From a virus (Duplodnaviria > Heunggongvirae > Uroviricota > Caudoviricetes), in IMG/VR virus record IMGVR_UViG_2630968911_000003, positions 1-11,761 of that record: DNA of 11,761 nucleotides. One strand, 5' to 3'. Below the pieces are notes generated by a model. The model was not told the origin of the DNA. It searched no databases and was given only the letters and a program-made list of their open reading frames with translations. The translations under genes were made by a program, and so were the position numbers. Shown here piece by piece: positions 3,471-5,643 of this stretch. Each line of letters opens with the position of its first letter. Position 1 is the first letter of the stretch.

Positions 3471-3992
3471 ATGATGCCATTTGCTTGTTATTTCTTCATT
3501 TTCATAAACGTTGGTTTGGGAGAAGGCTCTGCATTACCTGTTGGTGTGCCTGTTCCATGGCCTTCAGCCACACCGCCAACAGGCTGGCTGAAATGCAACG
3601 GTGCGGCTTTTTCTGCTGAAGAATACCCGGAACTGGCAAAGGCTTATCCGACAAATAAATTGCCTGATTTACGTGGTGAGTTTATTCGTGGCTGGGATGA
3701 CGGGCGCGGTATTGATGCAGGACGTGTTTTATTGAGCATTCAGACAGGGATGCTGGAAAAACACCGCCATATTGTTGTTGCCAATGATGGTTACGACACA
3801 AAAGATGAATGGGAACTGGCTACGATTTTCAAAAAGACATACACACAAGGACGGGGACTTGATGCCACAAATACAGGAGGGAGTCTGATCCCATCACCGA
3901 CACTTCATTCACGAGGGAGTATCGGTAATACTGGCGGGAGTGAAACCCGTCCACGAAATATTGCATTTAACTATATCGTGAGGGCTGCATAA
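3471..3992 (+). CDS. silent alternative tail-fibre C-terminal receptor-binding module (P2 gpH / Mu S-like)
   Basis: Carries the hallmark motifs 'PVGVPVPWPSATPPTGW', 'AFSAEEYPELAKAYP', 'LPDLRGEFIRGW' and the terminal 'NIAFNYIVRAA' of P2 H / Mu S-type fibre tips. It has no credible start of its own: the first ~14 codons span the crossover site, and the stretch from 3513 becomes in-frame with the fibre N-terminus after inversion. Confidence 0.75.
   Translation: MMPFACYFFIFINVGLGEGSALPVGVPVPWPSATPPTGWLKCNGAAFSAEEYPELAKAYPTNKLPDLRGEFIRGWDDGRGIDAGRVLLSIQTGMLEKHRHIVVANDGYDTKDEWELATIFKKTYTQGRGLDATNTGGSLIPSPTLHSRGSIGNTGGSETRPRNIAFNYIVRAA
3499..3524. other. invertase crossover site (hix/gix-like, pin-proximal)
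   Basis: The 26-bp sequence TTTTCATAAACGTTGGTTTGGGAGAA matches the reverse complement of the site at 5341-5366 at 21 of 26 positions, and resembles the Hin/Gin crossover consensus around the core AACCAAGGTTT. It lies about 55 bp upstream of the pin start. Confidence 0.65.
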
Positions 3993-4594
3993 TGGATAAC
4001 GCCGTATTAAATAGCGAGCTTATTGCCACGAAGGCGGGGAATATTACCGTCTATAACTATGATGGTAAAACTCGGGAATATATTTCTACTTCAAATGAAT
4101 ATCTTGCCATTGGTGTCGGTATCCCTGCATATTCCTGTCTGGATGAACCTGGTATACATAAGGCGGGTTATGCTATCTGCCGTTCGATGGATTTAAACTC
4201 ATGGGAATATGTGCCAGACCATCGCGGTGAAATCGTCTATAACACCGAAACGGGAGACGCCAAAGAAATCACAGCTCCGGGTGATTATCCTGAAAATACA
4301 ACCACTATCGCCCCGTTAACGCCATTCGATAAATGGGATGGTAAGAAATGGGTGACCGATACTGAGGCACAGCATAGCGCCGCAGTAGACGCGGCAGAAG
4401 TACAGCGTCAGTCACTGATTAATACTGCAATGGCTTCCATTAGTCTGATTCAACTTAAATTGCAGGCCGGGCGGAAGCTGATGCAGGCAGAGACCACCCG
4501 ACTTAACACTGTGCTGGATTACATTGACGCGGTGACGGCAACAGATACCAGCACAGCGCCGGATGTCATCTGGCCTGAACTGCCGGAGGCGTAG
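3992..4594 (+). CDS. tfa: tail fibre assembly protein (Tfa) paired with the silent fibre module
   Basis: A 200-aa protein with the typical Tfa pattern and C-terminal 'DYIDAV...DVIWPELPEA'. Its start overlaps the stop of the upstream fibre module. Length and position match e14 TfaE. Confidence 0.85.
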   Translation: MDNAVLNSELIATKAGNITVYNYDGKTREYISTSNEYLAIGVGIPAYSCLDEPGIHKAGYAICRSMDLNSWEYVPDHRGEIVYNTETGDAKEITAPGDYPENTTTIAPLTPFDKWDGKKWVTDTEAQHSAAVDAAEVQRQSLINTAMASISLIQLKLQAGRKLMQAETTRLNTVLDYIDAVTATDTSTAPDVIWPELPEA

Positions 4595-5003
4595 GCCATT
4601 CAATATCTGGCACACTGGAGGTATCAACCAGCTCCAGTGCGTCCAGGTAATCCAGCCACAAATTATATTGCGCCAGTTCCTCGTCTTTCAGACGATCAAT
4701 AGCGGCTTTACCGGGCCATTGTTTACTGTTCATGTATTCGTTGGCCTGATTAAGCAATAATTGCCTTTCTGATTCTGCCTGTTGAATAAGTTCTTCATGT
4801 GATGGTGAAGGTATTAGTGCCCATGTGGGTAATCCATTCTCTCCTGCAACACGAATTTTGCCATCTGGGGGCGTATTTATTGCAAATTCATTATAAACAT
4901 CATCACTGACAGCCAGAGCATCATCTGGCCATGAATTTGCATTAATGTAATCATCCTTAAGTGCAGGATTCACAAAAATGTTTAAAGATGGACTATAAAA
5001 CAT
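4566..5003 (-). CDS. tfa: tail fibre assembly protein (Tfa) paired with the expressed fibre
   Basis: A 145-aa protein with Tfa-like C-terminus 'LWLDYLDALELVDTSSVPDIEWPTPP'. It starts 2 bp after the fibre stop. Confidence 0.8.
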   Translation of the reverse strand: MFYSPSLNIFVNPALKDDYINANSWPDDALAVSDDVYNEFAINTPPDGKIRVAGENGLPTWALIPSPSHEELIQQAESERQLLLNQANEYMNSKQWPGKAAIDRLKDEELAQYNLWLDYLDALELVDTSSVPDIEWPTPPAVQAR

Positions 5004-5004
5004 A

Positions 5005-5643
5005 TTACACCCCTATAGCGATATAACGACCTAATACAGCGTTTGCAGCAGTCGCTATGCTTGAAAAACCGCGGAACTGATTTGATGTAATTGCAGAAGC
5101 CGACAGGATTCCTGCGCCTGAAGGTGTATGCCCCACATGACTAACTATCATTCCATAACATGCTGACGGAAAGGCAAAAGGAAAATCATTAAGATATCCG
5201 GCATCTTCACCACCAGACCCACCAAATCTCGCCTGCCCCCACTGAATAATCAGTGTTCTCCGGGAACCTGAAATAATTAACGGAATCGTTACATACCCAT
5301 TCAGACCAATGACACCCGATGCAGTGCCAGCCAGAGATAATTCTCCCAAACCAAGGTTTTCGAGAGCCGTTTTCACCGTGCCATCCGATTTGATATCACC
5401 AAACGGATTCTTGCGGCTTAACAGCAGCGCACGAAGCGCGGTAAGCAACTGGTCGTGCCGCCCCTTCTCCAGGCTGGCACCGGATGCCTCCACCACGCTG
5501 CAAAGTTCCTCCTGCAACATGTCAAAGTAGTCATCATCCAGATCGGTGGCAGGTGTGCCGGTCTGGGGGTTACCACGGGTAAAACCGTTCTTACCCGCGC
5601 CGAACTTATCCTTCTGCGCGGTTTTCGTGTCTATACGATGCAT
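5005..5643 (-). CDS. stf: side tail fibre protein, currently expressed orientation
   Basis: The N-terminus 'MHRIDTKTAQKDKFGAGKNGFTRGNPQTGTPATDLDDDYF' is a common E. coli prophage tail-fibre N-terminus. The crossover site falls at codons 93-101 ('ALENLGLGE'), so residues 1-97 are the constant part and the rest is variable. It starts with ATG, tightly packed after the upstream tail gene. Confidence 0.8.
   Translation of the reverse strand: MHRIDTKTAQKDKFGAGKNGFTRGNPQTGTPATDLDDDYFDMLQEELCSVVEASGASLEKGRHDQLLTALRALLLSRKNPFGDIKSDGTVKTALENLGLGELSLAGTASGVIGLNGYVTIPLIISGSRRTLIIQWGQARFGGSGGEDAGYLNDFPFAFPSACYGMIVSHVGHTPSGAGILSASAITSNQFRGFSSIATAANAVLGRYIAIGV
5341..5366. other. invertase crossover site (hix/gix-like) inside the tail-fibre gene
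   Basis: TTCTCCCAAACCAAGGTTTTCGAGAG is a near-palindrome with a central AA dinucleotide. It matches hixL-like consensus at about 20 of 26 positions and is the inverted partner of 3499-3524. Confidence 0.65.

Follow-up and report, generated by a model that had tools for sequence, protein, structure and literature searches.

The closest described relatives of the locus considered here are the P segment of the Escherichia coli K-12 prophage e14 with its invertase Pin, reportedly described in 1985 by Plasterk and van de Putte, the G segment of Mu, the C segment of P1 and the H segment of Salmonella, the last three with the invertases Gin, Cin and Hin. The locus lies in an 11,761-nucleotide (nt) stretch of viral DNA (Caudoviricetes; IMG/VR virus record IMGVR_UViG_2630968911_000003, positions 1 to 11,761), here called the window, and it comprises an invertase gene (pin), a tail-fibre gene and, between two inverted sites of 26 base pairs (bp), the alternative C-termini of the fibre. 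The region is very probably an e14-type P segment, i.e., a switch of the Hin/Gin/Cin/Pin family that has two states and works by site-specific inversion. As such, the feature is already known and its genes are routinely annotated; the present copy carries cassette alleles that are not those of K-12, and it is part of a rare, recently decayed prophage.

In the Mu G segment (S/U versus S'/U'), just as here, the constant N-terminus of the fibre lies outside the segment, the two tips with their chaperones lie inside it in opposite orientation, and the invertase gene, which comes right after the far site, points away from it. Pin and Gin are 78% identical, and the Mu sites also have the form AAACC-NN-GGTTT. 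Mu differs in that its segment is about 3 kb long, in that the central dinucleotide of its sites is TC and in that its annotated S gene measures 1515 nt, compared with 639 nt for the fibre gene here. Since Mu is a complete phage, its host range really changes upon inversion, unlike in the present case. The P1 C segment has an invertase that is 81% identical to Pin, cix sites with the same core and a central TT, and an annotated enhancer at nt 19–90 of cin, but cin is read towards the segment, cixL lies at the 3' end of cin, and the segment is 4.2 kb long. In the Salmonella H segment, Hin is 66% identical to Pin, and hixL, about 74 bp upstream of hin (67.5 bp in the case of pin), shares the core and the central TT, but hin itself is inside the segment, and inversion relocates a promoter instead of exchanging one coding C-terminus for another.

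With the K-12 e14 P segment, the locus has in common the gene order (ymfQ, stfP, tfaP, tfaE, stfE, pinE), both 26-bp sites, the spacer between pin and its site, and a crossover codon within the motif ...ENLGLGE..., while Pin and YmfQ are 96% and 98% identical between the two. The tips and chaperones, in contrast, are different alleles, with 131 of 214 identical residues for StfP (where the differences are found mainly after residue 100), 117 of 183 for StfE, 173 of 200 for TfaE and only 62 of 154 for TfaP, a value that by itself marks the tfaP-like gene as a different allele. From centre to centre of the sites, the segment measures 1842 bp here and 1827 bp in K-12. From the allelic nature of the variable parts follows that the chassis of the switch is the same in the two cases, and that the cassettes mounted on it are different. 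A preliminary description of the window, made by reading the raw sequence without tools, had placed the locus within the logic of e14 P, Mu G and P1 C and had claimed no new biology, and the identity of the sites with those of e14 together with the shared layout bears this out.

In K-12, both orientations of the P segment coexist in clonal cultures (PMC4272514). Deletion of pinE locks the K-12 segment, and its inversion is driven by overproduced PinE or PinQ (PMC12529663). The parts of the corresponding switch in the window are as follows.

2890–3444, minus strand: pin, a DNA invertase of 184 amino acids, pointing away from the segment that inverts (Pfam Resolvase, E 9e-52, and HTH_7)
3355–3426, minus strand: candidate Fis-dependent recombinational enhancer at nt 19–90 of pin, on account of its homology to the annotated enhancer of P1
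3445–3498: spacer between pin and pixL, with the ribosome-binding site of pin on the minus strand and, on the plus strand, an in-frame ATG at 3471/3474
3499–3524, plus strand: pin-proximal site of pixL type, TTTTCATAAACGTTGGTTTGGGAGAA, with the central TT at 3511–3512
3512–3992, plus strand: alternative C-terminus of tail-collar type, unjoined to the constant part in this orientation (Pfam Collar, E 1e-15; PHROG 523, tail collar fiber protein)
3992–4594, plus strand: tfaE-like assembly chaperone for the collar-type tip (Pfam Caudo_TAP, E 3e-31)
4566–5003, minus strand: tfaP-like chaperone for the gp53-like tip (Pfam Caudo_TAP, E 4e-34)
5005–5353, minus strand: gp53-like C-terminus, joined to the constant part in this orientation (Pfam Gp53-like_C, E 4e-12; within the open reading frame 5005–5643 of 212 amino acids)
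5341–5366, plus strand: distal site of pixR type, within the fibre gene, TTCTCCCAAACCAAGGTTTTCGAGAG, with the central AA at 5353–5354, in codon 97
5354–5643, minus strand: constant part of the tail-fibre gene, encoding the N-terminus of about 96 amino acids, outside the segment (PHROG 1396 and others, tail fiber protein N-terminus)

Recombination sites and fibre fusions

The two sites are imperfect palindromes of 26 bp in inverted orientation, with the same central dinucleotide and the core AAACC-NN-GGTTT. After reverse-complementing, they agree in 21 of 26 positions, and an independent repeat finder returned arms of 19 nt at 3506–3524 and 5341–5359 that are 95% complementary. Both sites are base-for-base identical to those of the e14 P segment in K-12 MG1655. 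When all sites are oriented from outer half to inner half, the pix sites align with gixL/R of Mu, cixL/R of P1 and hixL/R of Salmonella (the hix sequences were confirmed in a Salmonella diarizonae contig), all of them with the common core, and the central dinucleotide is TT in pix, cix and hix and TC in gix. This is the alignment that the preliminary description had proposed as a check on its two hix/gix-like sites, and its values for them (3499–3524 and 5341–5366, 21 of 26 identities, a central AA/TT and about 1.84 kb between them) were all returned unchanged by recomputation.

The family core AAACSWWGGTTT is confined to the two sites in the 11.7-kb window, where 0.01 occurrences are expected and where the observed count was reached in 0 of 200 shuffles, and a looser half-site scan gave no further full site in the window. 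From the presence of two sites only follows that the switch has two states, and a multi-state shufflon operating through extra sites, as in p15B Min, is ruled out by the same two scans. The possibility that the sites are hairpins or terminators was likewise ruled out, as the 26-mers fold weakly (z-scores of -1.5 and -0.7) and a terminator-like match at 5343–5366 is merely the palindromic recombination site itself.

Consider now the reading frames at the two crossover points. The base at 5354 is the second of codon 97 (Leu) in the minus-strand open reading frame of 212 amino acids at 5005–5643, and that at 3512 is the third base of a codon in the frame of 3471–3992. When the stretch 3512–5353 is inverted in silico, an open reading frame of 256 amino acids is obtained, which contains ...KTALENLGLGEGSALPVGVPVPWPSATPP... 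and ends with NIAFNYIVRAA. The crossover thus falls inside the fibre gene, both fusions (212 and 256 amino acids) are open, and both are annotated in natural genomes. The same frame arithmetic had been done by hand in the preliminary description, which also named an out-of-frame fusion as an outcome that would speak against a switch; when recomputed, the arithmetic proved right and the fusion stayed in frame. The constant part is 97–100% conserved in most related loci.

Each tip is accompanied inside the segment by a chaperone gene of its own, as had also been proposed, and these two Caudo_TAP genes have opposite orientation. They converge with an overlap of 29 bp (4566–4594), and their 3' ends contain an inverted repeat of 18 nt that is 89% complementary (4513–4530 and 4639–4656). 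The C-termini of the two chaperones are alike also in translation (...DVIWPELPEA and ...DIEWPTPPAV).

By analogy with its relatives, the switch would operate in the following way. Pin dimers would bind the two inverted 26-bp sites and would be activated by Fis on the enhancer in the 5' end of pin, as in Hin and Gin, some 95 bp from the proximal site. Pin would then cut both sites at their central 2 bp and rotate the strands by 180 degrees, by which the 1842 bp would become inverted. As the distal site lies in codon 97, inversion joins the constant N-terminus of 96 amino acids to either of the two tips. In state 1, which is that of the window, the constant part is followed by the gp53-like tip, with the tfaP-like chaperone and a product of 212 amino acids, and in state 2 by the tail-collar tip, with the tfaE-like chaperone and a product of 256 amino acids. 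That Pin is the acting enzyme in this strain, and that inversion depends on Fis and the enhancer, we infer from the described systems.

Both orientations in natural genomes

The two junctions predicted by in-silico inversion were searched for in 5,426 complete E. coli genomes. The post-inversion junction, in which the constant part continues into the collar tip, is contiguous in 514 of them, with up to 99.7% identity, and is annotated there as a tail-fibre gene, while the junction of the window type, in which the constant part continues into this gp53-like tip, is contiguous in 24. On the pin side, where pin lies next to the anti-phage defence gene PD-T4-3, 78 genomes have the collar tip facing pin and 9 have this gp53-like tip in that place.

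One of the complete genomes, that of E. coli G4/9 (NZ_CP060073.1), contains the same defective prophage, with the flanking insertion sequence (IS) fragment, the AraC-family regulator, the GIY-YIG gene, the lysis genes and the scar at which a terminase gene abuts a baseplate-J fragment. When the segment of the window is inverted in silico, the result equals G4/9 over 11,653 bp, except for two single-nucleotide differences at 5398 and 5410. The fusion of the constant part with the collar tip is annotated in G4/9, too, as a gene for a tail fibre. By sliding the assumed exchange point along the comparison of the window with G4/9, the exchange is bounded by 3510|3511 on one side and 3524|3525 on the other. 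The asymmetric base 3510, directly beside the central TT, stays with the flank, as predicted by a staggered cut at the central dinucleotide. The junction of the terminase/baseplate-J deletion occurs in one of the 5,426 genomes, i.e., in G4/9. From the sharing of so rare a scar follows that the window and G4/9 have a recent defective ancestor in common and that the difference in orientation has arisen since then. As the same scar is found with opposite orientations, the inversion post-dates the decay of the prophage. On the evidence of these assemblies, the segment has been inverted after prophage decay and the switch is demonstrably invertible.

Both of the differences, at 5398 and 5410, affect the third base of a codon in the constant fibre part, less than 60 bp from the distal site, and they may represent a small gene-conversion patch from another e14-like copy.

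The same exchange is seen in a second pair of strains. The cattle strains 118 and 133 (both 5,453,897 bp) are near-isogenic, and between them the flanks of the segment are 100% identical, the segment itself is inverted, and the same two mismatches from site asymmetry are found. In both pairs there is, in other words, a real inversion with exchange at the centres of the sites.

The layout of the switch was further surveyed in 80 related loci on viral contigs from IMG/VR. In most of these, the proximal site lies 67.5 (±1) bp from the start of pin, and in most loci with both sites the distal site is 1.6–2.05 kb away. In 16 of the loci the constant part continues into the collar tip, in about 14 that tip faces pin, and the partner cassettes are highly diverse. 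More complex arrangements were seen in four loci (L024, L065, L080 and L088), some with the distal site in direct orientation and the constant part on the opposite strand, others with duplicated sites or tips, and these suggest that the switch also exists with larger inversions or in multi-cassette form.

Pin, its candidate enhancer and the leader frame

Pin is a small serine recombinase, with an N-terminal catalytic domain that contains Ser9 and a C-terminal helix-turn-helix. It matches the Gin structure 3UJ3 over its full length (residues 1–181, E 1e-94), and 176 of its 184 residues are identical to those of PinE in K-12. The catalytic Ser9 is invariant with Gin, Cin and Hin, and so are R42, K46, Q150, R153 and L154. 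Contacts with Fis and the enhancer have in Hin been reported for Q151, R154 and L155 and for the residues 47, 48 and 51 of the basic helix B (PMC3798978), and with these align Q150, R153, L154, K46, K47 and R50 of Pin.

The preliminary description had guessed that the 5' part of pin holds the enhancer. The P1 record annotates an enhancer of Cin inversion at nt 19–90 of cin, to which nt 19–90 of pin are 78% identical, and over this stretch pin is 78–79% identical to gin, cin and hin, with no insertions or deletions. Two 15-mers of the form G-N13-C occur in it, which would be the counterparts of the Fis sites of hin. The first, GTATCAACAAATGAC, is at nt 22–36 of pin (3409–3423 in the window) and is identical in gin; the second, GTGCAGGATGTGAGC, is at nt 71–85 (3360–3374) and is one base off gin and one off cin. 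The codons at which they occur are the same in pin, gin, cin and hin. Between the centre of the first 15-mer and that of the pin-proximal site there are about 95 bp, in agreement with the roughly 100 bp reported to separate hixL from the proximal Fis site (PMC3798978).

Codons 9–13 (TCA ACA AAT GAC CAG) show zero synonymous variation among 69 distinct pin genes, while the neighbouring codons are free to vary, a sign that the first 15-mer is constrained by more than its coding function. When the two 15-mers are taken as a pair, the synonymous constraint is not significant (8 of 162 placements of the scanning window are equally low), and the third-position identity to gin and cin is raised only slightly in the candidate enhancer; from this follows that the enhancer is supported mainly by homology. 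Together with the spacing and the invariant run of codons, this homology supports the guess to the extent that the 5' coding region of pin is, on homology, a well-supported candidate for a Fis-dependent enhancer.

Outside the segment, the ATG at 3471/3474 in the spacer opens a reading frame that runs through the site and into whichever cassette faces pin, which in the window gives the open reading frame 3471–3992, and the leader encoded at 3471–3524 (plus strand) is MMPFACYFFIFINVGLGE. Nearly all of the 80 related loci keep the sequence ATGCCA and a frame that is open into the site, even when the spacer has diverged, and in the Mu record the start of the Mup52 gene also lies between the segment boundary and gin. 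The conserved ATGCCA could be a real start codon, or it could equally be promoter sequence of pin and gin on the opposite strand. Neither pin nor the leader frame has a consensus sigma-70 promoter in 3445–3530 by a simple scan. After in-silico inversion, the leader frame reads MMPFACYFFIFINVGLGELSLAG... and continues through the gp53-like tip, and the corresponding gene of 128 amino acids is annotated in G4/9. Judged by its open frame, the cassette that faces pin is not obviously silent.

In K-12, inversion has been reported to yield such a product of leader and gp53-like tip, StfE2, which is made only in the inverted state and which blocks the adsorption of T2 and other phages, and the inversion reverts when phage is absent (Kirigo et al. 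2025, PMC12529663). The orientation in the window corresponds to the K-12 reference, i.e., to the non-inverted state. The gp53-like tip taken alone is about 36% identical to the K-12 tip over the aligned part (tblastn), and at so low an identity the anti-phage function of StfE2 cannot be assumed for the product here.

Prophage decay, competing explanations and meaning

The surroundings of the switch consist of the following features.

220–447: IS3-type integrase-core fragment
489–1241, minus strand: AraC-family regulator gene
2005–2829, plus strand, with a likely start near 2056: PD-T4-3 anti-phage defence gene, next to pin (PADLOC, E 2.7e-140; Pfam LEM-3-like GIY-YIG)
5647–6231, minus strand: ymfQ, for a baseplate wedge subunit like gp48 of Mu, immediately upstream of the fibre gene (Pfam Phage_Mu_Gp48; 191 of 194 residues identical to K-12 YmfQ)
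6222–6809, minus strand: C-terminal fragment of baseplate J (positions 94–255 only of the Pfam Baseplate_J profile; annotated as a pseudogene in G4/9)
9083–9532: HNH endonuclease gene
9911–10252: Iss/Bor-type lipoprotein gene
within 9083–11499: lambdoid lysis cassette (annotated rzpD, rrrD and essD in G4/9)

The baseplate-J fragment abuts the gene for the large terminase subunit (6778–8466), and the scar at about 6778–6809 marks a large deletion of head and tail genes. Between the terminase and the baseplate-J fragment there are no genes for portal, capsid, sheath, tube or tape measure, and most baseplate genes have been lost. Beyond the large terminase subunit follow the small subunit, the HNH endonuclease and the lysis cassette with its Iss/Bor lipoprotein gene. 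The remnant is a mosaic, in which a lambdoid lysis and packaging module has been joined to a Mu-like tail-tip module. In K-12 e14, the scar in the same region is different, and the e14 record ends beside the icdC pseudogene, whereas the prophage in G4/9 adjoins paoD. In related intact prophages (BS15R-A and O157-type strains), a complete Mu-like tail module lies upstream of the same fibre gene. Downstream of pin, K-12 e14 has mcrA, a type IV restriction gene, where the window has PD-T4-3, and from this the slot seems to hold exchangeable defence cargo.

When the head genes and most of the tail genes are gone, no particle can be made, and there is then nothing on which the fibre could be mounted so that host range would change. 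The locus had been described as an intact host-range switch in an otherwise decayed prophage. Of this, the intact invertible switch and the decay stand, while the term host range is nominal and describes ancestry: the locus works like a host-range switch, but it cannot deliver a host-range phenotype on its own.

Several observations weigh against the assignment to a Pin-controlled switch with an enhancer in pin. The present strain is known from a static assembled sequence alone, so that the part played by Pin in it is deduced from its relatives. The second candidate Fis site has a G+C-rich centre and is without clear synonymous constraint in the 69 pin genes, and the 54-bp spacer contains no consensus sigma-70 promoter for pin by a simple scan. 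Furthermore, the unlinked K-12 invertase PinQ reportedly inverts the P segment more efficiently than PinE (88% versus 49%, PMC12529663), from which follows that control by the adjacent pin alone may be an incomplete account. The extreme form of this argument is that inversion occurs mainly in trans, by another Pin-family invertase (one like PinQ or PinR, or that of a P2- or Mu-like prophage), and that the adjacent pin is minor or inactive. Such an arrangement would draw on the ability of family members to substitute for each other, of which PinQ is an example, and related loci are common in E. coli, where a query consisting of pin and the segment has 2 matching places per genome in the median and up to 11. 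The Pin encoded here is, however, of full length with all its catalytic and Fis-contact residues conserved, and the K-12 segment is locked when pinE is deleted, so that inversion mainly in trans is unlikely, albeit worth keeping in mind. Much further from the evidence is the idea of a frozen relic, in which pin and the sites are mere leftovers and the differences in orientation reflect assembly choices or rare homologous recombination between the 19-bp repeats. The comparisons were indeed made on static assemblies only, but the exchange interval starts exactly at the central dinucleotide, and the asymmetric neighbouring base stays with the flank in two independent strain pairs. In addition, repeats of 19 bp are too short for RecA to recombine efficiently, Pin is intact and so are the two sites, hundreds of genomes show that either orientation is common, and in K-12 the two coexist within clonal cultures, all of which leaves the relic scarcely credible.

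A third alternative concerns what the inversion is for, and here the switch would have been taken over as an anti-phage device, in that inversion places the gp53-like tip behind the leader frame and yields an adsorption blocker of about 128 amino acids, similar to StfE2, as has been claimed for K-12 e14. The K-12 report on T2 adsorption, the conservation of the leader ATG and its open frame (with Mup52 as the parallel in Mu), the annotation of the 128-amino-acid gene in G4/9, the inversion after decay of the prophage and the position next to the defence gene PD-T4-3 all favour this possibility. Against it stand the distance of the gp53-like tip from that of K-12, the lack of a recognisable signal peptide in the leader, a Shine-Dalgarno-like AGGA that abuts the ATG, the equally good explanation of ATGCCA as promoter sequence on the other strand, and the fact that the published mechanism is based largely on overexpression and docking. 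Moreover, as the decayed form is rare and recent, with one occurrence in 5,426 genomes, its retention says little about selection. A conversion into an anti-phage device is for these reasons distinctly improbable. It is a long shot, too, that the pin-proximal cassette is non-silent, with a leader-plus-tip protein that would be switched with each inversion, and that the switch beside PD-T4-3 is kept as a reversible blocker of the cell surface with a specificity given by its own allele of the gp53-like tip.

As a two-state inversion switch of the e14 type, the locus is a clean positive control, in that sites, frames and mechanism were recovered correctly from raw sequence by a reading without tools, and that the switch is live could be confirmed from public genomes alone, because one and the same rare deletion scar is found with the segment in either orientation. 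It also illustrates the allelic exchange of invertible fibre cassettes, and among its relatives the defence gene found downstream of pin varies, being either mcrA or PD-T4-3. Both the exchange of cassettes and the slot for defence genes are relevant to the recent claim that the switches of cryptic prophages serve phage defence.

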